A stretch of 64,000 nt of DNA from IMG/VR virus record IMGVR_UViG_3300033153_013649, positions 64,001 to 128,000 of that record; one strand, given 5' to 3'. This DNA comes from a virus. The notes below the pieces were generated by a model. The model was not told the DNA's origin. It ran no database searches and saw nothing but the letters and a program-made list of their open reading frames with translations. This document shows, piece after piece, positions 2,725 through 51,363 of this stretch. Position 1 is the stretch's first letter, and every line of letters begins with the position of its first letter. Made by a program: the position numbers and the translations under genes.

Positions 2725-3834
2725 ATGGAAAAAAATTCCGATATATCTTTAAAAATAGATAAATTAAAACGAGAAATTTCAATTTTAAATCAAAAACAGC
2801 ATGCTTTTAAAATCTTGCTCAATGCAGGATACGGTGCTTTAGGAAGTGTATATTTTTCTCATTTTGATATTAGATTAGCAGAAGCTGTTACTTATACTTC
2901 TCAACTAGTAATTAGATATATGATTCAATATCTAGAAAAAAATCTTGGAATAGAAATTATATATTCTGACACTGACTCCCTTTACCTTTCTGTAGAACCT
3001 CAAGTTAGAAAATATTGTAAAAAGACAGGTAAGAATTATGAAGATCTGACTTATGAACAAAAGCGAGAAATATATGATTTATTAGATAAGAAGATTTCTA
3101 AAGTTATTAAAAGAGGATATGAATTATTAAGTAAAAGATTAAATGTTCGAGAAAATGATTTTAAAATGGTACGGGAAATTTATGGAAATAAAGCAATTTG
3201 GCTAGGTAAGAAAAATTATTTAATAAAGATGATAGATAAAGATGGAAATTTAAAATCCCCTGAAACTCCTCCTTATGTAAAAGGATTTGATATTGTAAAA
3301 TCAGGAGCTACTACAAAATGGATAATAGAAGCTTTAAAGGAATATGCTGAACTTATATTTACAGAAGATAAAGAAGGGGTAGTTAAGTTCGAAAAAGAAA
3401 AATTCCAAGAATATAAAAAGCAAAATCCATTTTCTCTTTTTAAACCAAAATCTTTATCTTCTATGAATAAATATACTTTCAATTCGAAAGGATGTCCGAT
3501 TCATATTAAAGCGGCTTTAGTTTATAATATGGTAGTAAAAGAACATAATCTTCAAGCGGATTTTCCTGAAGTTTCAGAAGGAAATAAAATTTTATTTGCA
3601 TATATTCAAAAACCTAATAGATTTAATTCTCATGTTATTGGATATTCAGATCAGATAAATGAAGAAAAATTTTGGGAATTCGTGATTAAACATTATACTA
3701 TAAAACTTGATTATCAAAAAATGTGGGACACTGATTTTATTTCTCCAGCAAGAAGATTAACGGATGCTTTAAAATGGGATATATCTAATTTTAATAAATC
3801 AAATTTTGCTAATTTACTAAAGGAAAAGAAATGA
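2725..3834 (+). CDS. family B DNA polymerase, C-terminal subunit (gp43B-like: fingers helix P, palm, thumb)
   Basis: Motif B QHAFKILLNAGYG, motif C YSDTDS, KKNY, KGFDIVKS; no exonuclease domain or motif A. Confidence 0.92.
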   Translation: MEKNSDISLKIDKLKREISILNQKQHAFKILLNAGYGALGSVYFSHFDIRLAEAVTYTSQLVIRYMIQYLEKNLGIEIIYSDTDSLYLSVEPQVRKYCKKTGKNYEDLTYEQKREIYDLLDKKISKVIKRGYELLSKRLNVRENDFKMVREIYGNKAIWLGKKNYLIKMIDKDGNLKSPETPPYVKGFDIVKSGATTKWIIEALKEYAELIFTEDKEGVVKFEKEKFQEYKKQNPFSLFKPKSLSSMNKYTFNSKGCPIHIKAALVYNMVVKEHNLQADFPEVSEGNKILFAYIQKPNRFNSHVIGYSDQINEEKFWEFVIKHYTIKLDYQKMWDTDFISPARRLTDALKWDISNFNKSNFANLLKEKK

Positions 3835-3835
3835 A

Positions 3836-4039
3836 ATGAATTTGAAATATAATTATATTGATTTGAATGAATTTAGTATTTTTTTGACTAAAACTATAGA
3901 TGAATCAGAAAAACTTAAAGAAATAGTTGAACAGATTAATTGGAGATATGCAGATGAAAATAAGCTGCAATTAATAATAAAAATCTCTTGCCTTGAACAA
4001 AGACTTGCAGAATTGAGAAATAAAATCCAAAGGAGTTAA
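3836..4039 (+). CDS. hypothetical protein
   Basis: ORF in operon spacing. Confidence 0.55.
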   Translation: MNLKYNYIDLNEFSIFLTKTIDESEKLKEIVEQINWRYADENKLQLIIKISCLEQRLAELRNKIQRS

Positions 4040-4040
4040 T

Positions 4041-4304
4041 ATGTGGATGGAAATTATAGGAATATCTACCCCTCTGATAGTTATACCTCAAATAATACGA
4101 ATATTAAGAAGAAAATCGGCTGAAGATATAAGTAAATGGTTTTATGTTTTGCTTTTATTTTTTCAAGCAAATTGGTTTAGATATGGAATAATAATAAAGG
4201 ATGTACCTTTAATTCTCAGTGGAGGTATTTCTTGTATTTCTTGTTTAATTGTATTATTCTTTTGTTTTAAATATACTCTCTATAAAAAACGGACATATTT
4301 TTGA
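4041..4304 (+). CDS. SemiSWEET/PQ-loop family 3-TM transporter
   Basis: IPQIIRILRRKSAEDIS, WFRYG and DVPLI; three hydrophobic helices in 87 aa. Confidence 0.85.
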   Translation: MWMEIIGISTPLIVIPQIIRILRRKSAEDISKWFYVLLLFFQANWFRYGIIIKDVPLILSGGISCISCLIVLFFCFKYTLYKKRTYF

Positions 4305-4332
4305 TTTTAAATTATTATAAAGGGGATAAATT

Positions 4333-4668
4333 ATGTACGAAGAAATGATATCAAATCCTTCCTGGGAATGTAAACGATTACTTATTGAAATATTTGAGAA
4401 GGGACTTAGAAATTTAGTTGCAAAGGGAGATACTAATTGGGATACTTTAAGTGCTAGAAGTCATGTTATTAATGCAGTAATACGTTTTAGAGATTTTGAA
4501 AATCTCATTTATTGGGAAGAGAATATGTGTAAAGATATAGAAGGAAATTCCTCTTTAGTTAATTTTTCAGATGAAGAATTGGATCTATTAGTAGACGGTA
4601 TAACATCAGCAGTGTTTGCATATTATCAATTAATAAAACAAAAAGGGAAAATAGATGAACAATGCTAA
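4333..4668 (+). CDS. hypothetical protein
   Basis: ORF with AGGGG RBS. Confidence 0.6.
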   Translation: MYEEMISNPSWECKRLLIEIFEKGLRNLVAKGDTNWDTLSARSHVINAVIRFRDFENLIYWEENMCKDIEGNSSLVNFSDEELDLLVDGITSAVFAYYQLIKQKGKIDEQC

Positions 4669-36789: not shown

Positions 36790-36867
36790 GTACTCGTAGC
36801 CAAGTGGTTTCACGGCAGCGGTCTGCAAAACCGTTATATATCGCGGGTTCGAATCCCGCCGAGTACT
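36790..36867 (+). tRNA. tRNA-Cys(GCA)
   Basis: GTACTCG/CGAGTAC; GCGGT-CTGCAAA-ACCGT. Confidence 0.92.
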
Positions 36868-36884
36868 CTATTATATTTCTAAAC

Positions 36885-36953
36885 GTGCCTGAGCTAAAAC
36901 AGCTAATAATATTTCAAATCTCGTGAAGGTGGGTTCGATTCCTCCCAGGCGCG
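36885..36953 (+). pseudogene. tRNA-like remnant with no clear anticodon arm
   Basis: GTGCCTG/CAGGCGC acceptor and GGGTTCGATTCC T-arm. Confidence 0.5.
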
Positions 36954-36974
36954 CAAAATTAATTAAAAAAGAGG

Positions 36975-37003
36975 TTGACAAACTATTATAGGATTTAGTA
37001 CAT
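36975..37003 (+). promoter_or_regulatory. sigma70-type early promoter
   Basis: TTGACAAA..TTTAGTACATT. Confidence 0.75.
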
Positions 37004-37018
37004 TATTATAAAAATTAT

Positions 37019-37155
37019 AAGGCATAGAGAGTTCCTTTTAATTATCACTCCCATAGAATAATACTCTCCGCCTTTAAATTTTTAGAGTAAAAACAAAAGG
37101 GGTTCCTATTTGAATCGATTGAGAGTCAACAATTACCCCTCGTTTGAAACTCTAA
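37019..37155 (+). promoter_or_regulatory. two tandem related RNA hairpin motifs in a 5' leader
   Basis: GAGAGT-TCCT...ACTCTC and AGGGGT-TCCT...ACCCCT with outer stems. Confidence 0.5.
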
Positions 37156-37173
37156 TAAAGGGGAAATAAAAAA

Positions 37174-39093
37174 ATGAAAGCAACAATAAAATTATTTAGA
37201 GCTGTTGAAATCAAAGATAAATATAAGACACGCTTAAATAAAAGATTATTGCCAAAAACTGTAAGATCTGGATTTATATTTGCCCCTGAAGTAATCGGAA
37301 ATTATTCTGAAGAGGAACTCGATGATTTATTTGAAATAGTAGATAAAGAAATCGGATTATCTGCTGAACAAATGAATACATCCTTTCATAAATCTTGGAA
37401 TAAAGTAAAAGAAGCAAGTATCGAACAATTAGTTTTAGAACAATTAGTTCACTATATTACGACTTATGGTTTCGAACACGCGGGACTTTATGATAAAGAT
37501 TCTGTATATATTCCTAATGAAATTCTTGAAGTTCCAGAACTTGAAGATGGTATACGCTTAAGAGTTATCAAAGGATATACAAAAGAAGAATTAAAAGATA
37601 AATTGTTATCTTTGATCGGTTCAGGAATAGCTCTTAAAGAAGATACAGTAAATGATATACTTGAAGTTGCTGTTCAAATTGGAATAAATGAAGAAGATAT
37701 AGATCAGATAAAGAATAAAGAAATTAAAGTTGCTCTTTATGACCGTTTAGGATTATTTCCAGAAAATCCAATTGAATTTTTAAGATATGTTGTTTATAAA
37801 ACCATCGGAAAAACTCTTTTAATTAAAGATAATGATACTATAACAGCAATTAAAGAAGCAGATATAGGAAAAAACTCAGACTTATTTTTTGAATATATAA
37901 ATAAGTACGGTTTAGAAAAATTAGCTCAAGTATTCTTTAGATTTAAACCAATTTTTCTTGCTTTCAAAACAGATAATAAAATAAGAGAAAGCGGAATCAT
38001 TAATAGAATAAGAAAACTTGCTAATATATATCATAAACCAATGCCAGAAGATTTTTTGAATGAAATTACTTCTAAGATTGCAAAAAAAGAAGAAATTGAT
38101 ATTAATAAATTAAATAAAGAACTTGATAGAGTAAATATATTTAGAAAAATCCGATTAGCTTATGCTTTAAAATACAGAACTTTAGAAACTGAATCAATTC
38201 TTTATAGACTTAGAAACGGGAAAGGATATGCTAAACCTTTTTCATATACAGGTAGCAAAACAGTTGTAAATAATATATTAAATCTTATACTTAATTCAAT
38301 TTCTAATGATATTGCAAAAAACGTAAAAGGAAAGAAAATATATATTCCTGACAATATGATTTATGCTCTTCCAGCAACAGAAAAACAGTTTACAGGGGAA
38401 TTTCCTTCTGGTAGTTACATTTCAATTCCAAAAGATATGGTAATGGGGATATTTTGGAAGAATGTTAAAAAAGATGGAATTAGACATAGAATCGATTTAG
38501 ATCTTTCAATAATAAATGCAACAGATAAATTTGGATGGGATGCTGATTACAGATCACCTACTAGAGAGATTCTTTTTTCTGGAGATATAACAGATCCTCC
38601 AAAAAAAGGAGCTACCGAATTATTTTTTATTGCAAAACAAAGTTTAGATTTTTATATTGTTTTTGTAAATTATTATAATTTTCTAGAAAATTCAGGAATA
38701 GAAGTTCCAATGCAAATATTAATTGCTCAAGAAGAAATAAAAGATAAAAAAGCAGCTCGTAATTATACTGTTAATCCTAATAATGTAATAGCTACAGCAA
38801 ATACTTCGATTAATAAAAGTCAGAAACTGTTAGGCTTTCTTGTTACAACTACTGGAGGATCGAAATTCTATTTTGCGGAAACATATTTAGGAAAAACAAT
38901 AACTGCTGATTCTACATGTGAACTTGTTAAACACGGAAGACAGTTTCTTTTTGATTTTTATAGAAATACTATTAATTTAAATGATATGTTGTGCGATGCA
39001 GAGGCTGAAATTGTAGAAGATAGGGAAGAAGCTGATATTGATTTATCTCCAGAAAATCTTGAAAAAGATACAATAATCAATTTGATTAGTTAA
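37174..39093 (+). CDS. large helical protein with C-terminal TerD-like domain
   Basis: C-terminal W..RIDLDLS..GWD..FSGDITD..GATE pattern. Confidence 0.65.
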   Translation: MKATIKLFRAVEIKDKYKTRLNKRLLPKTVRSGFIFAPEVIGNYSEEELDDLFEIVDKEIGLSAEQMNTSFHKSWNKVKEASIEQLVLEQLVHYITTYGFEHAGLYDKDSVYIPNEILEVPELEDGIRLRVIKGYTKEELKDKLLSLIGSGIALKEDTVNDILEVAVQIGINEEDIDQIKNKEIKVALYDRLGLFPENPIEFLRYVVYKTIGKTLLIKDNDTITAIKEADIGKNSDLFFEYINKYGLEKLAQVFFRFKPIFLAFKTDNKIRESGIINRIRKLANIYHKPMPEDFLNEITSKIAKKEEIDINKLNKELDRVNIFRKIRLAYALKYRTLETESILYRLRNGKGYAKPFSYTGSKTVVNNILNLILNSISNDIAKNVKGKKIYIPDNMIYALPATEKQFTGEFPSGSYISIPKDMVMGIFWKNVKKDGIRHRIDLDLSIINATDKFGWDADYRSPTREILFSGDITDPPKKGATELFFIAKQSLDFYIVFVNYYNFLENSGIEVPMQILIAQEEIKDKKAARNYTVNPNNVIATANTSINKSQKLLGFLVTTTGGSKFYFAETYLGKTITADSTCELVKHGRQFLFDFYRNTINLNDMLCDAEAEIVEDREEADIDLSPENLEKDTIINLIS

Positions 39094-39132
39094 TATAATA
39101 AATAATATCGTCTATTGGATTTAAAATTATAT

Positions 39133-39207
39133 GGTATTCGTAGACAAACAGGTAAAGTCGTTCGGCTGTGACCCGAATCAATATGGGTTCGAATCCCATC
39201 GAATACC
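39133..39207 (+). tRNA. tRNA-His(GTG)
   Basis: G-1 with C73; TTCGG-CTGTGAC-CCGAA. Confidence 0.92.
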
Positions 39208-39240
39208 CACCAAGAAGGTTAAAATTACAAAGAGAAAATT

Positions 39241-39537
39241 ATGGATATTATAGAAAATGGAACGAGAGTATTTGTAGTAAATTTTGAAGATAATGAATTA
39301 GAAATTTTTGATGGAACTATCGAAGGACCGACTTTTTTAAAAGATGAATTAACTCATTATGGAATAAGATTACCTCAAGTATATCAACAACCGGCGGAGA
39401 TTGTACAGAGTCTTAAAGAAAACGTATTTGTTACTAAAAAATTAGCTTATGAAAGGGCAATATATCTTTTAGAAGAAAGAATTAAAGATTTTTCAAAAAA
39501 AATCGAAGTTCTTAGTTCACAATTAAGGTCAGAATAA
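39241..39537 (+). CDS. hypothetical protein
   Basis: ORF. Confidence 0.6.
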   Translation: MDIIENGTRVFVVNFEDNELEIFDGTIEGPTFLKDELTHYGIRLPQVYQQPAEIVQSLKENVFVTKKLAYERAIYLLEERIKDFSKKIEVLSSQLRSE

Positions 39538-39556
39538 AATATATAGGAGTTTTATA

Positions 39557-40018
39557 ATGTTTTTATTTTCATATATGTTATTACTTAGCTTGTTTTCTAT
39601 TATTATTGGATTATTTTTTGGAATAACGGATGCTTATATATCAAGAAGAAAAGAAGATTCAGATAATATAGGATGGGATTATCCTTTTTGGGTTAAAAAA
39701 TATATTCATATTTGGTGGCTAGGGGGTTTGATATTAAACTTTTCTTTTATTTATTGGTTAGCTATTTTATCTCCGTTTAATATAATAAAAACTTTTTTGA
39801 TAATGATGACGATTTTTTTTGCATTATCTGGATTATGTTGGGATATAACTTTTGCATATATCAAAACTGGAAAATTAATAACGGAGAAAACGATGCAATG
39901 GTGGTTAAGTATTCCGGGGATTATTAGAATAAGTTTTAAGACAAGAAAAGATGTAATAAGATTTCATATTATGAGAATAATTATTTTATTAGGTATGTGG
40001 GTATATGCATATATTTAA
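39557..40018 (+). CDS. multi-pass membrane protein
   Basis: About four hydrophobic helices; AGGAG RBS. Confidence 0.7.
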   Translation: MFLFSYMLLLSLFSIIIGLFFGITDAYISRRKEDSDNIGWDYPFWVKKYIHIWWLGGLILNFSFIYWLAILSPFNIIKTFLIMMTIFFALSGLCWDITFAYIKTGKLITEKTMQWWLSIPGIIRISFKTRKDVIRFHIMRIIILLGMWVYAYI

Positions 40019-40141
40019 ATAAAACCAAAGTTTCTATTTATTGTTCAAAGAATTATATTGTAATAATACGTGTTGGGTCTTCTCATTCGATTTCGATGAA
40101 GGGGAAGATCCAACTCGTTGAATTAATATGGTTTAAAGAAT

Positions 40142-40597
40142 ATGATAGTATATGCAGAACCAAAAACAAATCAAGTTCAGCCAAAATTTTCTTTAATTGA
40201 TAAACAACGAGAATTTTATAATAAAAGAATCTTAACTAATAAAGGATATCCAGCATTAAAAGAAGATATTAAAAAAAATGGAATAGTTCATCCTTTAATT
40301 GGTAATAGTTGGAAGGGTTTTCCTTATACTGTTAAAATTGGTTTAAGACGATTTTGGGCAGCAAGAGAACTAGGTATAGAAAGAATTCCGATATTAATAT
40401 ATGATTTACCGATATATACTTGGATTCCCGAATTTAAAGTTAATTGTGAATATAAATATAGATTAAAAAATATGGAAGATATATATGAATTATTCAAAGC
40501 TGTTGGAAAAAATTATCCAAAAGAAGATTTAATACCGGCCGGACAAAAATATTTTGTAAATTTATACGGTCAACATGGAATGAATATATTTAGATGA
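40142..40597 (+). CDS. ParB/Srx-like protein, MIVYAEP family
   Basis: NGIVHPLIGNS...IGLRRFWAARELG; close paralogue of 35849. Confidence 0.75.
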   Translation: MIVYAEPKTNQVQPKFSLIDKQREFYNKRILTNKGYPALKEDIKKNGIVHPLIGNSWKGFPYTVKIGLRRFWAARELGIERIPILIYDLPIYTWIPEFKVNCEYKYRLKNMEDIYELFKAVGKNYPKEDLIPAGQKYFVNLYGQHGMNIFR

Positions 40598-40607
40598 AAA
40601 TAAAAAA

Positions 40608-40681
40608 AACCTTGGTCCAATTGGAAAAGACAGCAGATTAAAACTCTGTAAGTTATAGAGGTTCAAATCTCTTCAAAGATA
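40608..40681 (+). pseudogene. degenerate tRNA
   Basis: D-arm GTCCAATTGGAAAAGAC, GCAGA/TCTGT stem, GAGGTTCAAATCTCT; weak acceptor stem. Confidence 0.5.
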
Positions 40682-40696
40682 CTAAACTAATAAAAT

Positions 40697-40770
40697 ACTC
40701 CTGTACCAGAATTGGGATATGGGCTGGATTTAGATTCCAGAGTTTATGGGTTCGATTCCCATCAGGAGTA
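40697..40770 (+). tRNA. tRNA-Leu(TAG) with short variable loop
   Basis: ACTCCTG/CAGGAGT; CTGGA-TTTAGAT-TCCAG; A73. Confidence 0.85.
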
Positions 40771-40799
40771 CTCCTATAAAAAGAAAGGAAAAGGATATC

Positions 40800-41402
40800 A
40801 TAAAAGATTATTTTTTAATCGGTCATCCGAGGTCTGGAAACGGTTTAATTAGAAATACTTTACAAGAAAATTTTCCAGAATTAAACTTTGTTCATTTTTC
40901 TCATTTAATTTTTACGCCAAGAAAAGATTTGAAATATGTTTTTATTCAAAGACAGTTTGAATCTGTTTTGAATTCAATGTATAATATGTGGATTAATGAT
41001 TTTCCTAAGAAATATATGAGCTTAGATGATTTTAGAAATATTAAATATTCTAAACTTCCTTTTGATCCAAAAGTGCAAAGAAAAGCTAAATATAATGATA
41101 AAGGAAACAAAGTAGAAATAAGAAATTCTCAATTTGGCTGGCAATGGCTAATAAGAATAAACAGAACCCCTCGAGAATGGTATGATTATTATAATAATTA
41201 TTGGCATCAACAAATCAATATGAATACTTCATTTATTCATCCAGTATTATATGAACAATTAATAGATCCAAAACTATTCCGTGAAATCATGGATAAGCTT
41301 TCAATATTTTTAATACATAAAACAAAAAGTACGTATGCTTGGTCGCAAATTACAGATAAAAGAATTGGAATATATCCGATAAATTATTCAGATAAAATTT
41401 AA
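40800..41402 (+). CDS. sulfotransferase-fold protein (start uncertain, possibly ATA)
   Basis: LIGHPRSGN (5'-PSB), FIQR..SVLNS (3'-PB), VLYEQL; the track's ATG lies inside tRNA-Leu. Confidence 0.7.
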   Translation: MKDYFLIGHPRSGNGLIRNTLQENFPELNFVHFSHLIFTPRKDLKYVFIQRQFESVLNSMYNMWINDFPKKYMSLDDFRNIKYSKLPFDPKVQRKAKYNDKGNKVEIRNSQFGWQWLIRINRTPREWYDYYNNYWHQQINMNTSFIHPVLYEQLIDPKLFREIMDKLSIFLIHKTKSTYAWSQITDKRIGIYPINYSDKI

Positions 41403-41418
41403 ATTTTGTAAAAAGTTA

Positions 41419-41447
41419 TTGACAAATTCGATTTTATTTAGTATATT
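41419..41447 (+). promoter_or_regulatory. sigma70-type promoter driving the rnpB-like RNA
   Basis: TTGACA-17-TATATT. Confidence 0.8.
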
Positions 41448-41750
41448 ATAAATGAAAGGAACTTTAAAACATCAAAGAATGGAGGGCTGAATTAAATCAG
41501 GCGAGGTAACTCGACGGAAGGTACAATAGAAACTATACCGCCACGTTTGCCCACGTGGTAAGGGTGAAAAGAGAAGGCCTAAGAATCTTCTCTATTATCG
41601 GTAACGATTAATAGACGTAAACCTTCCCCCTCCCTTCTTTTTGATGTAATTTCAAATAAGTTAAGAGAATTTGGACTAATGAATAAGAAGGCTAAAATAA
41701 ATGTTATTTTTAATAGAATTTCGGGTACAAATCTCTTTAAAGATTTATAT
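41447..41750 (+). ncRNA. rnpB: RNase P RNA homologue (divergent)
   Basis: GGCGAG-GTAA-CTCGACGGAAGGTACAATAGAAA..ACCGCC..GGTAAGGGTGAAA..GGTAAC..GTAAACC..TAAATAAATG..AGAATTTCGG in canonical order. Confidence 0.8.
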
Positions 41751-41764
41751 AAAAGAGAGGTAAC

Positions 41765-42136
41765 ATGAAAACATCAAAAAGATTTGGCGATTTATTTAGA
41801 GAATTACGCCTTAAAAACAGATATACACTAAGGGCATATTGCAGAAAGTTCAACCGTGATCCTGCTTATATTAGCAGAATTGAAAGAGGAATAACTCCCC
41901 CACCGGAAAACAGTGAAGAAATCGAAAATTATGCTAGATCATTTAATTTAGAAGAAGGATCAAGACAGTGGATTGAATTTTATAATTTGGCTGTAGTTAG
42001 TAGAAAGAAAAAATCAGAACCCATATTATCCGAGAAAGAACTTGTTGGTAAATTACCATTATTTGTAACAACAACTAGCGGAAAGCCTCTTGATAATGAT
42101 AAGTTAGATAAATTGATTGATATAATAAGAGATTAA
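41765..42136 (+). CDS. XRE-family HTH transcriptional regulator
   Basis: FGDLFRELRLK..TLR...DPAYISRIERG..PPP. Confidence 0.88.
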   Translation: MKTSKRFGDLFRELRLKNRYTLRAYCRKFNRDPAYISRIERGITPPPENSEEIENYARSFNLEEGSRQWIEFYNLAVVSRKKKSEPILSEKELVGKLPLFVTTTSGKPLDNDKLDKLIDIIRD

Positions 42137-42144
42137 ATATTAAC

Positions 42145-42223
42145 GGGGCACAGGACTGCTAGGGGTGGTCGTCTCATTTGCGATGAGAAAAATTTCAGGT
42201 GGGTTCGAATCCCACGTGCTCCA
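42145..42223 (+). tRNA. tRNA-Ala(TGC)
   Basis: GGGGCAC/GTGCTCC with G3:U70; TCTCA-TTTGCGA-TGAGA. Confidence 0.9.
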
Positions 42224-42273
42224 CAGATGGAAATTATAGATCAGAAAAAAGAAAGAATAAAAAGGAAAAACTT

Positions 42274-42618
42274 ATGATTGAATTCAAAAATGAAATTGGG
42301 CTTTTAAAATCTATAAAAAAATCTCTGCAAGAATTTCAGGAGGAAAATAAAAGTCATGAATATTCTCATGAAAAAAAAGAAGAGAAAACGGAAAATTATT
42401 TGGATGAAATGATACTTTATGCATTTCGATATTGTCTCGGAAGGTCAAGTTATGCAGTTGGAATTTGTATCGAGTATCTTATTGATAATTGGGATAAGAT
42501 CTCAAAGAAAAATAAGGCATTGATTCATAAAGAAATTAATCAAGCAATTGCTGATAATGATGCTGGTTGGGGATGTGATATTGAAGCATGGAAAAAGATC
42601 TTAAAACTTGAAAAGTAG
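42274..42618 (+). CDS. conserved phage hypothetical protein
   Basis: AFRYCLGRSSY motif; start moved out of tRNA-Ala. Confidence 0.65.
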   Translation: MIEFKNEIGLLKSIKKSLQEFQEENKSHEYSHEKKEEKTENYLDEMILYAFRYCLGRSSYAVGICIEYLIDNWDKISKKNKALIHKEINQAIADNDAGWGCDIEAWKKILKLEK

Positions 42619-42708
42619 GAATCATATTTTAGATTCTAGATTGAAATTCTGGGAATTAGAGATAAGATTCAATTCGGTGGTATTACTAAAGAGAAAAAGG
42701 ATTATATT

Positions 42709-43026
42709 ATGCTACCAAAATTAAAAAAAATCGATTTATCGAAAAGATACCATGGCCCAAAAGATGTTAAGATTGGATGTGGAAAGCGACATGATGATAT
42801 AAAGCCGAGTATTTTTACTCAATATTTAGCTAAAATTAATGGGTTTTGGCACGTTGTAAACTTTTCTGAACAATGGCATGGATTGATAGCTAAGGAGAAT
42901 AATGATCGGCGGTTTGATTTAGATTCGGGGCGGCGGTTTGATTTAGATTCGGGGCAGAAAAACGATGGATCTGATTGGGAAGAATTATATGAAATTATAG
43001 ATCAGAAAGGAGAAGAAAATGACTAG
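42709..43026 (+). CDS. hypothetical protein
   Basis: ORF with AAGGA RBS. Confidence 0.6.
   Translation: MLPKLKKIDLSKRYHGPKDVKIGCGKRHDDIKPSIFTQYLAKINGFWHVVNFSEQWHGLIAKENNDRRFDLDSGRRFDLDSGQKNDGSDWEELYEIIDQKGEEND
42907..42954 (+). repeat. perfect 24 bp in-frame tandem duplication
   Basis: CGGCGGTTTGATTTAGATTCGGGG x2 (RRFDLDSG x2). Confidence 0.9.
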
Positions 43027-43134
43027 TCCTTATGCAAAGAAACATTATCCGAAAAAGAAAAAACTTGGAAGAAAAAGTTTTAGGTATCTTCAATTACACG
43101 GAGAAAAAGCAAAGAAAAAATAATAAAAGAAATA

Positions 43135-43383
43135 TTGAAGAAGTTATCATTTTTTGAAATATTTATAACTTTTATTTTAGTATTTATATTTATTAAATTG
43201 GATACTTATAATTTCTATAAGGAATATTATGAAAAATATAAGAAAAGAAAAGATGTTGAACAAATTGAAGAAAAGCTGGAATTAAAGGTTTATGAATTTT
43301 ATGATATATCTGTTGATATGGATTTAAGAGTTACCTTTTTAGGTGATTCTTTACTTGCAATTGATACTTTGAAAATTTATTAG
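43135..43383 (+). CDS. small protein with N-terminal TM helix
   Basis: Hydrophobic N-terminus. Confidence 0.5.
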   Translation: MKKLSFFEIFITFILVFIFIKLDTYNFYKEYYEKYKKRKDVEQIEEKLELKVYEFYDISVDMDLRVTFLGDSLLAIDTLKIY

Positions 43384-43396
43384 AATAAGAAATTTT

Positions 43397-43472
43397 GCGG
43401 GATAGGCTGAAAAGGATTAGGCGCCTGGCTTCCAACCAGGAATATTAATCGGTTCGATTCCGATATCCCGCT
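43397..43472 (+). tRNA. tRNA-Gly(TCC)
   Basis: GCGGGAT/ATCCCGC; CCTGG-CTTCCAA-CCAGG. Confidence 0.92.
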
Positions 43473-43491
43473 CTAAAATAATTATATAAAA

Positions 43492-44103
43492 ATGGAGATA
43501 ATAAATAAAAGAGTACTTTTGATAAATATTTCTTATGAACCAATTACTGTAATTAATGTAGCAAGATCGATTCTTCTTATTTATAAAGGAAAAGCTCAAA
43601 TAATTGAACATGAAGAAGAAATCAAACTTAGATCTAGTGGAAGATTTAATCCAAAAACAAATAAAAGAGAAAATTGGGAAATCAACTGTCCTACAGTTTT
43701 AAGATTAAAGAAATATGTTAAAGTTCCGAGAAGAAATTTATTACCAGTTAAAAGTAATATTTGCCAAAGAGACAGATATATCTGTCAATATTGTGGGATT
43801 GAACTCAATTTTATAGATCTTACTTTAGATCATGTTATTCCTTATAGTAAAGGAGGGAAAAGTACTTGGGAAAATTTAGTTGCTTCTTGTAGTAGATGTA
43901 ATAATAAAAAAGGGGATAGAACTCCAAAACAAGCGGGAATGAAATTACTTTCTAAACCGAAAAAACCCCATGCGTTTCAAACTTTGAGATTTTATATCAA
44001 GACAATTAGAAGTCCCTGGAAACCATATTTATTTATGGAATCCTTTCCTGTTGAAAACACAGTATCTCAAGAAGATATTGCTATTGTAGAACGTTCTTTA
44101 TAA
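43492..44103 (+). CDS. HNH endonuclease (McrA/HNH_5 type)
   Basis: RD..ICQYCG, LTLDHVIP.SKGG..TWENLVASC..CN..KG. Confidence 0.92.
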   Translation: MEIINKRVLLINISYEPITVINVARSILLIYKGKAQIIEHEEEIKLRSSGRFNPKTNKRENWEINCPTVLRLKKYVKVPRRNLLPVKSNICQRDRYICQYCGIELNFIDLTLDHVIPYSKGGKSTWENLVASCSRCNNKKGDRTPKQAGMKLLSKPKKPHAFQTLRFYIKTIRSPWKPYLFMESFPVENTVSQEDIAIVERSL

Positions 44104-44199
44104 GAGGGGTGGTGGAGTCTGGATTAATCACACTGGTCTTGAAAACCAGTAAATGTTGTAAAAGCATCATTTCGTGGGTTCAAATCCCACCCCCCTCTG
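44103..44199 (+). tRNA. tRNA-Ser(TGA)
   Basis: AGAGGGG/CCCCTCT; CTGGT-CTTGAAA-ACCAG; long variable arm. Confidence 0.9.
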
Positions 44200-44211
44200 C
44201 AAAATTAATCT

Positions 44212-44219
44212 TATAAATA
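44212..44219 (+). promoter_or_regulatory. T4-type late promoter for the transferase cluster
   Basis: TATAAATA. Confidence 0.5.
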
Positions 44220-44224
44220 GTTTT

Positions 44225-44842
44225 ATGAATGTTGAAATAGTTGAAAAGAAAATAGACAAAAACAATTTAAGAAAAAATTGGGCAATTTGTTCATTCTATA
44301 CCCCTGAATATTCAAAAGTAATATTAAATCTTATTGATTCTATTCAAAATTTAAATTTAAATTACATAATTCATCAAGTTAGATTATCCAATAATTGGAC
44401 AGCTAATACTCATTATAAACCCTTCTTTCTATTAGATGTATTAAACGAACATCCAGAGTTGAAAGCAGTTGTTTGGGTAGATGCAGATGCAGTAATTATT
44501 CGGTATCCAAAACTTTTTGATAATTTAGAATGTGATTTTGCAGCTCATATTCATAAAACAAAGAATCAATTACTTTCTGGAACTCTATTTTTCAAAAACA
44601 ACAATTCTGCTAAAACTCTTTTACGAATGTGGATAAAAGAATCGAGTAACAGACGAGGCCAATGGGATCAAAAAATATTACAAGAGACTAAAAATCAATG
44701 GAAAGGAAATTTCTATAATCTTCCCCCTCAATATTGTTTAGTTTTTGATAATATGAAACAATGGGGACCTCCGGTTATAGAACATTATCAATTTTCTAGA
44801 AAAATACGAAGAAAAGAAGTTACGATAAGGTCAGGAATTTGA
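44225..44842 (+). CDS. nucleotide-diphospho-sugar (GT-A) glycosyltransferase
   Basis: YKP.F, WVDADA (DxD), SGTLFF, WDQ..LQ, HYQ.SR. Confidence 0.85.
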   Translation: MNVEIVEKKIDKNNLRKNWAICSFYTPEYSKVILNLIDSIQNLNLNYIIHQVRLSNNWTANTHYKPFFLLDVLNEHPELKAVVWVDADAVIIRYPKLFDNLECDFAAHIHKTKNQLLSGTLFFKNNNSAKTLLRMWIKESSNRRGQWDQKILQETKNQWKGNFYNLPPQYCLVFDNMKQWGPPVIEHYQFSRKIRRKEVTIRSGI

Positions 44843-45540
44843 TACTTGAAAATTTAAAAGACGGAGCTTGGAAAGGACATCGAGCATTTATTATTGGAGG
44901 GGGTCCTTCTTTAAAAGGATTCGATTGGAAATTACTTCGAAGGGAAAAGACAATTGGCGTTAATAAAGCAATATTGAAAATCTTTCCTGATATTATGATA
45001 GGAATGGATTATCGGTTTTGGAATAAGCTTTTATCCGGTGATTTAGGTGATGTTATTCTTAGAAGAGTTAAAAGAATGAAAGGCTTAAAAATATATTTTC
45101 GAACCGGTAAATCTTTAGCTAATAAATTTTCATGGGCAAATTTAATCGAAATTGTTCCTAATCAAAACAATAAAAATGCTTTTACTACTTCTTTTAGTAA
45201 AGGATTAGGACATGGAAAAAATTCAGGATTTACTGCTTTAAATGTTGCAGTTAATCTTCGAGCAAATCCAATTTATTTACTTGGTTTTGATATGAAAGGA
45301 CATCCATCTACTAAAAAACAAGTTTGGTGGCACGAAGGATATCCATTTTCAGTAAATGATGAAAGTATATACAGACAATATATAAGAAATTTTGAAGTTC
45401 ATGCTTTACCTGTAATAAATAAATTGGATTTGAAAGTTATAAATCTAAATCCAGCAAGTGAATTAAAATGTTTTGAATTTGCTAAACCGGAGGATATATT
45501 TGAAAATAATGAGATTCTTGAAGATGAATCCCTCTTATAA
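44839..45540 (+). CDS. MAF_flag10/DUF115 (sialyltransferase-like) protein, copy 1
   Basis: FIIGGGPSL, IGVN, NSGF.ALN.A, IYLLGFDM. Confidence 0.8.
   Translation: MILENLKDGAWKGHRAFIIGGGPSLKGFDWKLLRREKTIGVNKAILKIFPDIMIGMDYRFWNKLLSGDLGDVILRRVKRMKGLKIYFRTGKSLANKFSWANLIEIVPNQNNKNAFTTSFSKGLGHGKNSGFTALNVAVNLRANPIYLLGFDMKGHPSTKKQVWWHEGYPFSVNDESIYRQYIRNFEVHALPVINKLDLKVINLNPASELKCFEFAKPEDIFENNEILEDESLL
44868..44941 (+). repeat. 74 bp perfect direct repeat, copy 1 (copy 2 at 46498-46571)
   Basis: TTGGAAAGGACATCGAGC...ATTACTTCGAA identical in both paralogues. Confidence 0.9.
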
Positions 45541-46411
45541 GAAATTTATCTATTGTATAGTTAGTTGGCTGATACTTATATTAATAATGGCTACTGTTAA
45601 ATTTAAAATCGATGAGATTTCCCTTAGATATAAAATAGAAACGCTTCAGGCTGAATATGAAGTAAAAAGCCAAGGATATGATGTTTTGAAAGCGCAGTAT
45701 ACTGCTGCGGCGAATGACTATCTCGCCGATCGGAAAATAGGGAGAGTCGTTCGCTCTGTTAATCCATGGCTAGACGATGAGCACGTTCAACTTTGGATCA
45801 AGATGCTTAAAGAAAGTGGAGACGGTATTCTTGCTGGTTTAAACAATTTTTCATTGAAGAAATTAGGCACCGGAGATTCGCTGTATTCTCTAAGACCAGG
45901 AATAGCTTTGCTCATTTCTGTTGGCGCATTCGAAAGTGATTTTAGGTTGTTTTCTGATAGTGGTAAGGGAGCATACGGTCCTATGCAGTTGAAAAAAATA
46001 ACAGCTGTTCAGGTTGGCATCAAGGACCGTCAAGATCCAGAGGAAAATATAAGAGGTGGAGCATTACATCTTGTTTCATTATTACAAAAATACTACCAGT
46101 ATCCAGATCAGCTCGAATTGGCGCTTGCCACTTACAATGCGGGCGCCTCGCGTGTAAAAGGAAGATGGATTCCGGAATGGGGCGCCGAATGGCATGCAAT
46201 ATATTCCGGACTTTCTGCGGACATGACATTCAAGGAGACGCGCACTTATGTTACGGCGGTGATGGAGCTAACCCGGCTCTTTGCCTCCGGTAGATGGAAC
46301 TCCCTGGATCAGAACTTCTGGAGCAACTACCGGCAGTTTATTTTCCGCGCCGATTATGTCACTGTTTTCGACGAAGAAAAGATGCAGATTACGGAACAGG
46401 ATGATTCATAA
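45500..46411 (+). CDS. membrane-anchored lytic transglycosylase (SLT)
   Basis: N-terminal TM; ES, GAYGPMQL, ALATYNAG, ETRTYV; GC-richer than its neighbours. Confidence 0.88.
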   Translation: MKIMRFLKMNPSYKKFIYCIVSWLILILIMATVKFKIDEISLRYKIETLQAEYEVKSQGYDVLKAQYTAAANDYLADRKIGRVVRSVNPWLDDEHVQLWIKMLKESGDGILAGLNNFSLKKLGTGDSLYSLRPGIALLISVGAFESDFRLFSDSGKGAYGPMQLKKITAVQVGIKDRQDPEENIRGGALHLVSLLQKYYQYPDQLELALATYNAGASRVKGRWIPEWGAEWHAIYSGLSADMTFKETRTYVTAVMELTRLFASGRWNSLDQNFWSNYRQFIFRADYVTVFDEEKMQITEQDDS

Positions 46412-46459
46412 TATTGTAGTAGATAGTCTGAATAATTCGAACGATAAAACATTTTAAAT

Positions 46460-47128
46460 TTGAGGATATATTTGGGAATAAAAATAAAAGATAATATTTG
46501 GAAAGGACATCGAGCATTTATTATTGGAGGGGGTCCTTCTTTAAAAGGATTCGATTGGAAATTACTTCGAAATGAGAAAACAATCGGAATCAATAAAGCA
46601 ATTATAGCTTTTGAACCAGATGTTCTTTTTTCAATGGATAAATTATTTTGGAGTGTTGTATATCCAAACTTAGGAATTATTCCTAGATGTACTAAAATTT
46701 ATTTAGATGGGAATATAATACCAAAATGTTCTCCTAAAATTACAAAATTAGGGATCATAAAATATCTAAGATATAAGGAAAGTCCTAAATTTTCGAAATC
46801 ACTGAAAGATGGATTATCTAGTGAAGTTGATTCAGGATATGCGGCTTTAAATTTAGCTCTTTTACTTGGTGCAGATCCGATTTATTTGCTCGGATATGAT
46901 ATGAAATTAAATAAAAATTCTGAACAAATATGGTGGCATGATGGATATAAAAAATATTTTTTAAAGAACGCTATAGAAAATTATAAAAAAAGAATCTTTG
47001 CTTATGAGAAATATGCTAAACCGATAATAGATGATTATTTTAAAGTTAAAGTTATTAATTTAAATATAAATAGTAATATAAAATGTTTTCCGTTTGCAAA
47101 AAGAGAGGAAATCTTTGAAAAGAGTTGA
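46460..47128 (+). CDS. MAF_flag10/DUF115 (sialyltransferase-like) protein, copy 2
   Basis: FIIGGGPSL, DSGYAALNLA, IYLLGYDM. Confidence 0.8.
   Translation: MRIYLGIKIKDNIWKGHRAFIIGGGPSLKGFDWKLLRNEKTIGINKAIIAFEPDVLFSMDKLFWSVVYPNLGIIPRCTKIYLDGNIIPKCSPKITKLGIIKYLRYKESPKFSKSLKDGLSSEVDSGYAALNLALLLGADPIYLLGYDMKLNKNSEQIWWHDGYKKYFLKNAIENYKKRIFAYEKYAKPIIDDYFKVKVINLNINSNIKCFPFAKREEIFEKS
46498..46571 (+). repeat. 74 bp perfect direct repeat, copy 2
   Basis: Identical to 44868-44941. Confidence 0.9.
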
Positions 47129-47729
47129 TATAGTAATACCGAGTAAAAACAGGAGAGAAAAATTAGGAGTAGCAATTGAATCAATCGGAAAGGCTAAAGC
47201 CGACGATTACGATCTTCGAACAATTATTATTCAAAGAAAAGACATGAGATCTTTTGCTTGTTGGAATCTATATTGTCAAACTATGCAAGCAGATGCAGTT
47301 TTATTTTCTACAGACGATGTTGAATTTTTACCTAATGGAATAGAAATAGGATTTAAGAAATTTTTTGAAATATTTCCAGATACAGATGGAATATTAGGAT
47401 TTCATCAAGCAAATATTGGATTTTCGAATGAGGGGCATAAATATGCCTTTGGAATGATGGGAAAAAAGTTTTTAACTAGATTTCCAAATAAAAATCCTTT
47501 TTGTCCTGATTATATAGTATTTTGTGCAGAAACTGAATTATGTAGATATGCTAATTCTATCGGTAAATATTATTTTGAAGAAAAAGCTAAGTTAAATCAT
47601 TATCATCCTTCTCATGGAGGTACATGGGATGAGACAGGAAGAAAATACAGAGATCCAAAATTAACATCTATTGATCATAGAAATTCTGCTTTGAGAAAAC
47701 AGAAAGGATTCCTTTGGGGAAAGAATTAA
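47115..47729 (+). CDS. GT2-family glycosyltransferase
   Basis: DIVIPS.NR, WN, STDDVEF, ETEL, HYHP; TTG start after GAGG. Confidence 0.8.
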   Translation: MKRVDIVIPSKNRREKLGVAIESIGKAKADDYDLRTIIIQRKDMRSFACWNLYCQTMQADAVLFSTDDVEFLPNGIEIGFKKFFEIFPDTDGILGFHQANIGFSNEGHKYAFGMMGKKFLTRFPNKNPFCPDYIVFCAETELCRYANSIGKYYFEEKAKLNHYHPSHGGTWDETGRKYRDPKLTSIDHRNSALRKQKGFLWGKN

Positions 47730-47808
47730 GCGCCTGTATACCCTCTCGCTACGAACGAGTAGAAAGGTTAACTAGGATTCCATATCGGTTCGATTCCGAT
47801 CAGGCGTT
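47730..47808 (+). tRNA. non-canonical tRNA-Arg(ACG)-like RNA lacking a normal D-arm
   Basis: GCGCCTG/CAGGCGT; CTCG-CTACGAA-CGAG; ATCGG-TTCGATT-CCGAT. Confidence 0.65.
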
Positions 47809-47817
47809 CAAAATATT

Positions 47818-48012
47818 ATGGTAGAAAATCATTCTTGTGCAATGTGTTGTCATTTTGTTTTGCAAATGGCGTGGTCGTCTCGTTGCCAAATAATATCTAA
47901 GGAAGAAAAAGAAAGAGAAAAAATGATTTCTTATAGTATAAGATCTCGTGAGAAAAACAGTTGTAGAAATTTTTGCTATAATCCTGGATGGTATTTGACT
48001 GAAAATTATTAA
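47818..48012 (+). CDS. small Cys-rich protein
   Basis: CAMCCHF...C...CRNF. Confidence 0.5.
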   Translation: MVENHSCAMCCHFVLQMAWSSRCQIISKEEKEREKMISYSIRSREKNSCRNFCYNPGWYLTENY

Positions 48013-48019
48013 AAAATTG

Positions 48020-48048
48020 TTGACAAACGTCTTTTAATTTAGTATATT
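48020..48048 (+). promoter_or_regulatory. sigma70-type early promoter
   Basis: TTGACAAA..TTTAGTATATT. Confidence 0.8.
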
Positions 48049-48423
48049 ATAATAAAAAGGAGAGGAATTGATTATGAATAATAATATGAAAATAGCTACT
48101 TATGTTAAACTCCGGGTTTCACTTTTTGGATTTTTTAGTGGAATATTAGTTATCATGTTTATTCTTTTGGTTTTTGCAAAATTAAAATCTTGTTTTAAAA
48201 TTAAATAAAATTTTAAAAGGAAGGATTTAAACTATGAAAGAACGTTCTGATATTTCAAATAAGATTTTAGATAATCATTATCGTCTACTTTCTCTCGAAA
48301 AGAGAATTGATATTCTTGAAAAGGAACTTAAGGTTTTAAAGGAATCTGCGCCTACTAAAACAAATTTAGTAAATCCTATTAATCCTAACGACGGAATCTT
48401 ATAAATATAACGCAAAATAAAAA

Positions 48424-48609
48424 ATGAAGATTAAACTTACTAAATTTTTAGTTAATAATAATTTTGCATGTGATTATAATCATGCTCGGGAGTTAATAAA
48501 AGACGGGAAAATTATATATAATTCTGTACCAGTTGATCTAGAATGGTTTGTTGTTAATTATCATTCAAAGATTGCTAAAATAGGAACGTTCATTGATATA
48601 AGAAGCTAA
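48424..48609 (+). CDS. small S4-like RNA-binding domain protein
   Basis: KLTKFLV..FA...HARELIKDGKI.YN..PV resembles the S4 motif. Confidence 0.55.
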   Translation: MKIKLTKFLVNNNFACDYNHARELIKDGKIIYNSVPVDLEWFVVNYHSKIAKIGTFIDIRS

Positions 48610-48676
48610 TTAAGATCTTTATATCGATATAAAAGCTAATAAAAAAGATAATAAAGGAATTTTAAAAGACAATAAA

Positions 48677-48755
48677 GGCCCATTAGTTTAATGGAAAAAC
48701 AATCGTCACATCGGCTTTTTACAGATAATTACCGGTTCGATTCCGGTATGGGTCT
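48677..48755 (+). ncRNA. tRNA-like RNA with expanded, irregular anticodon loop
   Basis: GGCCCAT/ATGGGTC, GTTT-AATGGAA-AAAC and ACCGG-TTCGATT-CCGGT are intact; 14 nt anticodon loop. Confidence 0.6.
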
Positions 48756-48765
48756 CTCGTACTTT

Positions 48766-48836
48766 TGGCCTATAGTGAAACAGAATCACATGAGACTTTG
48801 AATCTCATATTCTTGGTGCAATTCCAAGTGGGCCAG
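48766..48836 (+). tRNA. tRNA-Gln(TTG)
   Basis: TGGCCTA/TGGGCCA; TGAGA-CTTTGAA-TCTCA. Confidence 0.85.
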
Positions 48837-48843
48837 CAAAAAT

Positions 48844-48914
48844 TGAGATATAGTTAAAGGGAATAACTATTGTTTCTGAAACAATTATTCTAGGTTTGAT
48901 TTCTAGTGCTTCAA
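48844..48914 (+). tRNA. tRNA-Gln(CTG), probably decaying
   Basis: ATTGT-TTCTGAA-ACAAT; acceptor mismatch; T-loop TTTGATT. Confidence 0.6.
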
Positions 48915-48924
48915 CTACAAATTA

Positions 48925-49040: not shown

Positions 49041-49049
49041 TAATATTAT

Positions 49050-49123
49050 ATTGAAATAATTCAAAAAGAAGAACGTTCGGTTTATATTCGAAAGGTCACA
49101 AGTTCGATTCTAATTCTTCACGA
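49050..49123 (+). pseudogene. degenerate tRNA (Met/Ile-like)
   Basis: TTCGG-TTTATAT-TCGAA-AGGTC..AGTTCGATTCT; broken T and acceptor stems. Confidence 0.45.
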
Positions 49124-49149
49124 TACAAACTCAAAAATTTAAAAAATTT

Positions 49150-49866
49150 ATGGATATTAAATTACTTAATCAAACCAGAAAATTTTGGAGAACTAGAAAT
49201 ATTGATTATGCTAAATTTTCTAGAATATTAGTTAGTCCAGAAACTCGCAAGAAATTGTTAATTGGAGACAAAAAAGGTCTTAATAAACTTTGGGAAAAAC
49301 AGACCAAAAAGGATTTTCAAAAAATATTTAAAGATATAGATTGTCTTTCAATCAATTCTGTTTTAGAAATTGGATGTGGAGTTGGAAGAATATTAAAGGT
49401 ATTAGAAGAACATAAATTATTTTCTAGAATTATAGGTGTTGATATATCTCCAAAAATGATTCAATATGCCGAAGAATATCTTAAACTTCAAGATAGTTCA
49501 ACTATTGAATTATATCTTACCGATGGAGAAAATTTACCAATAAAAGATAATTCAATTGATTTTGTTTTTTCAATAGTTACCTTTCAACACATGACTACTA
49601 AATCGATTGTAAAAGCTAATTTGAAAGAAATTTATAGGGTTCTTGTTCCAAAAGGTCTTGCGAGAATTCAAACAATAGAACATAAAAATCCAAATATAAA
49701 ATCAGAAAATACTATTGCTGGATACAATGGATATTTTTTAAACGTTCGCGATAAAAAAGAAATGTTTCAAGAATATGGATTAAAAGTAATTAACTGGAGA
49801 TATGATAAAGAGGTAAAACCGGCTAATCCCGAACTCCAATGGATTTGGTTAACTCTAGAGAAATAA
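49150..49866 (+). CDS. class I SAM-dependent methyltransferase
   Basis: VLEIGCGVGR, GVDIS..MI, DFVFS..TFQH, EIYRVLVPKG. Confidence 0.9.
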   Translation: MDIKLLNQTRKFWRTRNIDYAKFSRILVSPETRKKLLIGDKKGLNKLWEKQTKKDFQKIFKDIDCLSINSVLEIGCGVGRILKVLEEHKLFSRIIGVDISPKMIQYAEEYLKLQDSSTIELYLTDGENLPIKDNSIDFVFSIVTFQHMTTKSIVKANLKEIYRVLVPKGLARIQTIEHKNPNIKSENTIAGYNGYFLNVRDKKEMFQEYGLKVINWRYDKEVKPANPELQWIWLTLEK

Positions 49867-49902
49867 TAGCTATTATTAGGATTATATTTTAAAGGAGAGA
49901 CT

Positions 49903-51363
49903 TTGTATATAGCGGTTGATTCTACTAACGAGAACTTTTTAGTTCGAAAACTAGGTCAAGATGGCAAATCATCAATTACAAAGATGCCATTTCGAGCCTC
50001 TTTGTTTATAGCTTCAGAAAAAGCTTCGAAAGAATATATAGGATTTAAAACTGGAAAGCATCTCAAAAGATTTGATTTCTTTTCTAGACAAAATTACTGG
50101 GATTTTAAAAATAAAATGAAAGATGTTGGAATATATGGAGATATTTCTCCGATATTTCAATTTATACCAAAACTTAATATTAGATCCGAGAATATATCTT
50201 TTCTTCGTCCTTGGGGATTAGATATTGAGGTTTATTCAGAAAAAGAATTTCCTTATCCAGAAAGAGCTATAATTTATCCTATTGTATCTTTAACTTTAGG
50301 GGATTTAAGAAAAAAGAAATATTATACTTTCGTATATGATATGGACGGAAAATGTACCCTTAAATCTCAACCGAATTGGGAAATTTTCGTTTATAGAAGC
50401 GAAGAAGATATGATGAATTCTTTTTCAAAATTCTGGAGACAAAACATAGCTAATATTCATATTCTAACAGGCTGGAATATTAATAAATTTGATATTCCTT
50501 ATATAATTAGAAGAATGAATTATCTTTTTACTGGAGATCCAGAAAAAATTTGTAAAGAGGTTCGGCTTCTTTCTCCGTTTAGAAATATCAAAAATAAAAC
50601 AACAAAATATTCAGAAACAGAATATATTATTGCTGGAATTCCGATTCTTGATTATTTAGCAGTATTTAAAAAATTCAATTTTCAATCCCGTCGTTCTTTT
50701 AAACTCGAAAATATAGCTCAAGAAGAACTAGGTCATGGAAAACTTGAAAATCCTTATTCTTCACTTCATGAATTATACAGAAAAGATATAAATACTTTTA
50801 TAAATTATAATAGAAAAGATACAGAACTTCTTGAAGAAATCGATAATAAATTCAATTATTTGAATTTTATGATTACAATTGCTCTTATTACTAAAATCAA
50901 TTATGAAAACGTTTTTAGTCCTATCCGCTGCTGGGAATCTCTTATATATAATAAATTAATAGAGCAAAATATTGTTACTAATCCAGCTAGAAGATTTACT
51001 AAAACACGTGAATATCTCGGGGCCTATGTAAAACTTCCAGAGACTAAAATGTATAGAGATATTATTTCGTATGATCTTGTACAGCTCTATCCTTCAGTAA
51101 TTAGGGCAGCAAATATATCTCCTGAAACTCTTATTGAAGGAGATTATGAAGAGAATGTAACGATTGAAAAATTTATGCTTGATGAATTCGAATCTAAAAA
51201 AGCACATAAAAATAACCAGATTTTACTTCCAACCGGAAATTATTATAAAAAAGAACCTCAAGGGGTATACCCTATTTTAATGGAAGAATTGTTCTTCAAA
51301 AGAATAGCTATTAAAGAGCAAATCAAAGAAAAAGAAAGAGAATTAAAAAAATTATTACAATGA
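49903..51363 (+). CDS. family B DNA polymerase, N-terminal subunit (gp43A-like: NTD, 3'-5' exonuclease, motif A)
   Basis: ExoI LDIEV, ExoII GWNINKFDIPY, ExoIII YNRKD, YLGAYV..P, SYDLVQLYPS, NISPET; stops in the fingers. Confidence 0.92.
   Translation: MYIAVDSTNENFLVRKLGQDGKSSITKMPFRASLFIASEKASKEYIGFKTGKHLKRFDFFSRQNYWDFKNKMKDVGIYGDISPIFQFIPKLNIRSENISFLRPWGLDIEVYSEKEFPYPERAIIYPIVSLTLGDLRKKKYYTFVYDMDGKCTLKSQPNWEIFVYRSEEDMMNSFSKFWRQNIANIHILTGWNINKFDIPYIIRRMNYLFTGDPEKICKEVRLLSPFRNIKNKTTKYSETEYIIAGIPILDYLAVFKKFNFQSRRSFKLENIAQEELGHGKLENPYSSLHELYRKDINTFINYNRKDTELLEEIDNKFNYLNFMITIALITKINYENVFSPIRCWESLIYNKLIEQNIVTNPARRFTKTREYLGAYVKLPETKMYRDIISYDLVQLYPSVIRAANISPETLIEGDYEENVTIEKFMLDEFESKKAHKNNQILLPTGNYYKKEPQGVYPILMEELFFKRIAIKEQIKEKERELKKLLQ

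Follow-up and report, generated by a model that had tools for sequence, protein, structure and literature searches.

The 64,000-nucleotide stretch of viral DNA analyzed here (the window) comprises bases 64001-128000 of IMG/VR record IMGVR_UViG_3300033153_013649, a 159,837-bp record with direct terminal repeats that is rated 100% complete. It carries a family B DNA polymerase (PolB) of the T4 gp43 type as two separate genes, called 43A and 43B. Both lie on the same strand with 43B first, and 46,068 bp separate the 43B stop from the 43A start, an interval that holds about 61 plus-strand open reading frames (ORFs) of at least 80 aa and 14 tRNA genes; the other way round the circular map, the halves are about 111 kb apart. 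The only replicative DNA polymerase of this phage is likely an obligate heterodimer of the two unlinked gene products, associated non-covalently and sharing a composite active site. An earlier note on this DNA had described one ORF with Exo I-III and motif A that ends in the first fingers helix and another that leads from a helix into motif B and YSDTDS, and had taken them as unlinked, intein-free polymerase halves about 46 kb apart in reverse order. Its coordinates and quoted ends are correct, and the layout and lack of intein motifs are borne out by the results below.

T4-type gp43 is normally a single polypeptide of ~830-900 aa, which is not the case here. The 43A gene (49903..51363, plus strand, TTG start) encodes 486 aa with the N-terminal domain, the Exo I-III motifs, the part of the palm that contains motif A and the first fingers helix (residues 455-485), which runs to the C-terminus. 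The 43B gene (2725..3834, plus strand) encodes 369 aa with the second fingers helix (residues 4-33), motif B, motif C (YSDTDS), the KKxY element, the thumb and a C-terminal tail. This tail (..SNFANLLKEKK, of the form SF..LL) aligns with the SL..FF tails of other B halves and the L..FF tails of other gp43 proteins, and may be clamp-binding. Pfam assigns DNA_pol_B_exo1 to 43A residues 99-271 (PF03104, E = 3e-21) together with positions 21-148 of the DNA_pol_B profile, while 43B matches positions 141-255 of the latter. In PHROGs, the full-length polymerase family phrog_262 (856 positions) is matched at 10-492 by 43A and at 498-845 by 43B, so that the halves abut; separate half families (phrog_2062 and phrog_1918) also exist in that database. 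From phrog_262, Pfam and alignments to RB69 and T4 gp43 (E values of 2e-46 and 2e-28), the two ORFs tile the full-length gp43 profile with no overlap and no loss except at the fingers tip.

The extents of the RB69 and T4 alignments place the break at this tip. The 43A alignment reaches gp43 residue ~483-490 and that of 43B starts at ~538-555; in RB69 numbering, 43A ends at ~500 and 43B starts at ~532-538, leaving about 30 tip residues of RB69 without a counterpart. Together with the predicted terminal helices, the alignments show that the chain is interrupted upstream of motif B, after the first and before the second of the long fingers helices, and confirm the fingers-tip split that the earlier note had proposed.

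A protein search identified a clade of close relatives with A halves of 482-501 aa (42-48% identity) and B halves of 363-371 aa (49-52% identity). The next relatives beyond it are full-length proteins at ~33%, and the polymerase of the clade is at most 34% identical to that of any cultured phage. In the clade alignments the exonuclease residues of 43A are invariant (Exo I D107/I108/E109, Exo II N192..D197 and Exo III Y302..D306), as are D391 and Y396 of motif A, which lies within D391-S398. Invariant in 43B are N33, Y36 and G37 of motif B (K29..N33..Y36 G37), D82/T83/D84/S85 of motif C and K162/K163/Y165 of KKxY. The invariance of all catalytic residues at 39-52% clade identity indicates purifying selection on both halves. 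As these motifs show, the active site must be built from both chains, with the motif A aspartate on 43A and the motif C aspartates on 43B, and neither chain would then polymerize alone.

No substitute for this enzyme was found in the genome. The only PolB matches in the whole 159,837 bp are 43A and 43B, with no further gp43A or gp43B partner of the kind that the earlier note had allowed for, and neither PolA nor Pol III alpha gives a match in the complete sequence. The genome is T4-like, with gp32, gp44, gp62, primase, gp47, uvsX, gp41, uvsY, gp55 and topoisomerase II all found. Pfam searches for gp45 and regA gave no match, but control genomes were equally silent; a 237-aa ORF adjoining gp44 is a candidate gp45. 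These observations bear on the possibility that the halves are decaying remnants or serve separate jobs, 43A for example as a free-standing exonuclease, with replication carried out by another polymerase. Separate exonuclease and polymerase genes are known from phage RM378, the B halves of two relatives (L003 and L004) contain stop-containing insertions, and a homologue of a DnaQ-like "DNA polymerase exonuclease subunit" is encoded 1.4 kb downstream of 43B (5202-5789), followed by a MazG/dUTPase-like gene. Against this stand the invariance of every catalytic residue in both halves, the lack of an alternative polymerase in a complete genome with its T4-type replisome retained in full, and the location on different chains of motifs A and C, which act jointly at the active site. 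We regard this possibility as quite improbable, while 43A might still have an additional stand-alone role.

In the heterodimer that we favor, the N-terminal domain, the exonuclease for proofreading, the aspartate of motif A and the first of the fingers helices would come from 43A. The second of these helices, with motif B, would come from 43B, as would the aspartates of motif C, the KKxY element that binds the primer, the thumb and the putative clamp-binding tail. Assembly would proceed by fragment complementation, as in phage 25 gp43A/B and engineered split Pfu polymerase: the palm sheet would fold jointly from its two pieces, with antiparallel packing of the fingers helices. Structure models of the single chains predict a 31-residue helix to the end of 43A (455-485) and a 30-residue helix at the start of 43B (4-33) that continues into motif B. 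Confidence is high for the exonuclease and thumb, while the palm segments 364-412 of 43A and 27-45 and 163-193 of 43B have predicted local distance difference test (pLDDT) values below 50. A palm that is shared between the chains and predicted to be disordered in the isolated halves makes fragment complementation a likelier driver of assembly than a zipper of fingers helices. The earlier note had favored the latter, describing the helix at the start of 43B as amphipathic and the halves as reassembling through a fingers coiled coil. Neither suggestion is upheld: the hydrophobic moments of the terminal helices are not above those of shuffled sequences (z = 0.7 and 0.1), and the net charge of each helix is positive.

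We infer the non-covalent association of the chains from two published systems. The 43A and 43B proteins of phage 25 co-purify and have polymerase activity (PMC2988022). A Pfu polymerase engineered to be broken at this tip retains full activity, and folding of its C fragment requires the N fragment (PMC3061061); the break position is the same as here, but that enzyme is an artificial bicistronic construct and not a natural unlinked pair.

Covalent joining of the halves after synthesis, by an unrecognized split intein or by RNA trans-splicing, has to be considered, as split inteins occur in topoisomerase II, gp41 and ribonucleotide reductase (RNR) of this genome, and relatives carry one inside 43B at motif C. 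However, no intein or Hint model matches 43A or 43B at E ≤ 1, whereas the same search detected the N- and C-intein halves of all three positive controls (gp41 and RNR of the window and the 43B pieces of L003). Polymerase homology by phrog_262 reaches within 3 residues of the 43A C-terminus and begins at residue 10 of 43B, which leaves no room for intein halves, and no Cys/Ser/Thr +1 or HN junction motif is present at the ends of either protein. The ORFs that flank the halves, a metallophosphoesterase and an unannotated 79-aa ORF, are not homing endonucleases. Moreover, the lengths of the termini vary among relatives, as expected of free ends, and many adjacent intein-free splits at the same site argue that the break is tolerated without ligation. 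Religation thus appears highly improbable, and the halves presumably remain separate polypeptides.

The unlinked layout recurs in relatives. Contigs from IMG/VR and the Joint Genome Institute (JGI) were located with clade alignments of each half, which were needed since a scan of viral contigs with the single 43A sequence gave no match. G001 (18.9 kb) and G002 (18.5 kb) have a B half and no exonuclease domain anywhere on the record, and G004 (21 kb), G003 (5.5 kb) and L251 (4 kb) have an A half and no B half. The flanking genes are conserved: in the window as in L003 and L004, a gp47/SbcD gene and then a small ORF precede 43B, and 43A lies ~1.5 kb after uvsX, gp41 and a small ORF in L083 and L084. 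Five independent clade contigs with one half only, at 39-52% identity and with common flanking genes, indicate that the layout is not an assembly artefact. It is hardly credible that the halves are truly adjacent and were separated by a chimeric or mis-joined contig, a danger also raised in the earlier note: the genome is a metagenome assembly and contains repeated promoter-like sequences, but the contigs with one half come from other samples and keep the same neighbors (the gp47 side for B and the uvsX-gp41 side for A), direct terminal repeats close the record, which is rated complete, and each ORF starts and stops cleanly in a tight arrangement with its neighbors.

Several points weigh against the two-chain enzyme as proposed. 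The two halves occur together in one complete genome only, the relatives being fragments that cover ~5-15 kb around each half, and the phage is known from metagenomes only. Shallow alignments (12 and 16 sequences) may account for part of the low pLDDT in the palm, and the terminal helices show neither significant amphipathicity nor charge complementarity. In addition, the B copies of L003 and L004, with their stop-containing insertion in motif B, may need recoding or be defective. On balance, the unlinked split polymerase is most likely a functional two-chain replicase.

To place the layout among other gp43 genes, 322 related loci were classified. Loci found via other split B halves comprised 113 fused and 43 split genes, with 6 more cut at the contig edge; all 43 splits have A then B on one strand, with gaps of -30 to +995 bp. 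Three more adjacent splits, with gaps of at most 1.7 kb, came from the first scan, in which most other loci were fused. A scan of JGI metagenomes anchored on the A half gave 65 fused genes and 9 adjacent splits (170-880 bp apart), and real downstream sequence followed a stand-alone A half only in L250 (the L084 contig) and L251, both of the clade of the window. Outside this clade, 55 of 55 split loci are thus adjacent, A then B, and no more than 1.7 kb apart. The 178 fused relatives of the later surveys have ~830-980 aa. Cyanophage-like B halves of 387 aa were also considered and set aside, being adjacent splits; in the cultured relative RB11-B the gene is fused.

In a neighbor-joining tree, a crude method, the unlinked clade forms a single deep, monophyletic group beside fused forms. 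Adjacent splits are dispersed across the fused forms, in many cases as close pairs, which suggests that the fingertip break is recurrent and labile. Close T4-like relatives can differ in having a fused or a split gp43 (L060/L061, L170/L200, L171/L208, L178/L184 and L095/L096), often with overlaps of 3-30 bp. Such differences imply frequent gain or loss of the split, and some of them could be assembly frameshifts. The survey shows that, in environmental T4-like phages, splitting at the fingers tip is far commoner and less stable than would be expected from the five cultured examples.

Those examples are the gp43A/gp43B pairs of Aeromonas phages 25, 31, 44RR2.8t and 65 and Acinetobacter phage 133, which are adjacent, A then B, and 2 bp to 3 kb apart according to Petrov et al. 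(2006, 2010) as cited in PMC3061061, PMC2988022 and PMC2677866. The earlier note had described known pairs as close together and in this order, in agreement with the papers and the 55 surveyed loci. The polymerase of the window shares with these phages the T4-type PolB, the fingers-tip break and two intein-free ORFs; it differs in the 46-kb distance, the B-then-A order, the ~60 genes in between and its deep clade with a conserved layout. Literature searches gave no instance of a phage polymerase split at the fingers and unlinked, although not all deposited genomes (2,600 GenBank phage records with a PolB match) were screened. The "split DNA polymerase" of a 2025 Nature paper was rejected as a precedent, being a T7-like PolA.

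Outside phages, the closest parallel is the PolB of Methanobacterium thermoautotrophicum, whose intein-free halves are encoded by two unlinked genes ~85 kb apart and assemble into an active enzyme (Kelman et al. 1999, cited in PMC3061061). This enzyme is archaeal and cellular, and its break lies in the palm, ~83 residues C-terminal of the fingers-tip site. The PolB of Nanoarchaeum equitans and the cyanobacterial DnaE are likewise replicative polymerases with halves at separate loci and, in the fractured-gene model, exemplify its final stage (step IV, "genomic uncoupling"; PMC2677866), but they are religated by protein trans-splicing whereas the polymerase of the window has no intein. The split-intein fractured genes with a free-standing homing endonuclease described by Dassa et al. 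(2009, PMC2677866) correspond in layout to gp41, RNR and topoisomerase II of the same genome and to 43B of L003 and L004; the fingers-tip break, in contrast, has neither an intein nor an adjoining endonuclease. The break point and the two-chain principle are already known, and what is new is the unlinked, reversed layout in a phage.

The gene order of the genome suggests how this layout may have arisen. It runs gp32, gp44, gp62, primase, methyltransferase, gp47, 43B, ~20 kb of nucleotide metabolism genes, uvsX, gp41 and 43A, compared with clamp loader, regA, gp43, uvsX and helicase in cyanophage RB11-B. Each half keeps one side of the classical neighborhood, which makes a single translocation of 43A to a position downstream of gp41 the simplest path. 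A break at the fingers tip, a site where breaks recur and are tolerated, would have come first. In the ancestor of the clade one half would then have moved, leaving 43B beside the cluster of gp44, gp62, primase and gp47 and 43A immediately after uvsX-gp41. In the genome of the window, a tRNA island would later have displaced 43A by another 21 kb. The fractured-gene model predicts uncoupling as an end state (PMC2677866), which appears to have been reached here without an intein.

Upstream of 43B in the window are the gp47/SbcD-like nuclease gene and the small ORF conserved in L003 and L004 (539..1938, plus strand), followed by the metallophosphoesterase gene (1983..2723, plus strand), which is not found at this spot in either relative. 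The block of uvsX, gp41 (fractured by a split intein) and a small ORF (24814..28804, plus strand) lies 21 kb upstream of 43A. A homing endonuclease gene, many small ORFs and the tRNA island, with 14 tRNA genes and small ORFs (34930..48915, plus strand), make up these additional 21 kb, which part the block from 43A in this genome only. Directly after the uvsX-gp41 block is a 477-aa GIY-YIG/homing-endonuclease-like gene (29236-30669), at the spot taken by 43A in L083 and L084. Beside two tRNA-Gln genes, ARAGORN reports a tRNA with an undetermined two-base anticodon (48677-48756).

Independent transcription of the halves is plausible, given the 46-kb distance and their separate ribosome-binding arrangements. 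A Shine-Dalgarno-like AAAGGAGAG (49891..49899, plus strand), as read from the sequence, ends 4 nt (3 bases in between) before the TTG start of 43A, while the TGA stop of the metallophosphoesterase gene lies 1 nt before the ATG of 43B, which suggests translational coupling. The best sigma-70-like matches upstream of 43B (1935..1963) and 43A (48020..48048), both on the plus strand, have the same hexamers and spacing (TTGACA-17-TATATT, 11 of 12 for the former) and are consensus matches only. Promoter scans upstream of both halves found sigma-70-like sites to be no richer than in shuffled sequences, and the identity of the two best sites is accordingly no more than a hint.

Split inteins have fractured further genes in the clade and in this genome. 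In two distinct relatives, L003 (8088-10861) and L004 (8242-10861), a split intein interrupts the B half at motif C (..YSDTDS|CDGDT.. and ..NILLHN|SIY..), and in L003 a 384-aa free-standing endonuclease-like ORF lies between the 43B pieces (8746-9900). With the pieces 43B1 and 43B2 and an unlinked A half, these genomes are predicted to have a three-piece polymerase. Their motif B coding DNA contains different stop-containing insertions of 7 and 8 nt (L003:8205-8214 and L004:~8307-8320), reading GGA[TAGTGGA]AGT and AAC[AGGTAAAT]GCC, with matched flanking codons GGA..GGA and AAC..AAT. Skipping either insertion restores the conserved protein exactly. By analogy, the insertions resemble a very short version of the take-off and landing bypass of T4 gene 60; alternatively, each could be a frameshift site, an insertion footprint or a pseudogene.

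Within the window, the gp41 (DnaB-like) helicase is encoded by two ORFs (26016-27398 and 27459-27854) with N- and C-intein halves (Pfam Intein_splicing at residues 382-440 and 4-38, respectively); its L084 homologue is a single ORF of 451 aa. RNR is similarly fractured (54600-55835, 55886-56710 and 56662-57711), with the N-intein at residues 325-408 and the C-intein at residues 10-42. A 274-aa ORF between the RNR pieces has a weak PDDEXK-like match, and the RNR C-intein resembles that of the L003/L004 polymerase.

A more far-reaching version of the two-chain proposal would take the unlinking not as neutral but as a stable, selected state in which separate transcription units, one for the subunit with the proofreading and N-terminal domains and one for the subunit with the catalytic part and thumb, set the ratio or timing of the halves, for example for fidelity tuning or for a second role of 43A. 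Some members of the clade would then make a three-piece enzyme of 43A and of 43B1 and 43B2 joined by a split intein, possibly with a short motif B bypass. We consider this version rather unlikely.

If the two-chain reading is correct, an essential viral replicase can survive breakage and the scattering of its pieces without any splicing element, and the "genomic uncoupling" end state, known for archaeal PolB and split-intein DnaE, would extend to an intein-free phage enzyme. Annotation pipelines and surveys that use gp43 as a marker gene would miss or miscount such phages. The enzyme would also offer a natural, long-evolved two-chain family B polymerase for enzyme engineering, which is of relevance because splitting Pfu polymerase at the same site altered its tolerance of nucleotide analogues.

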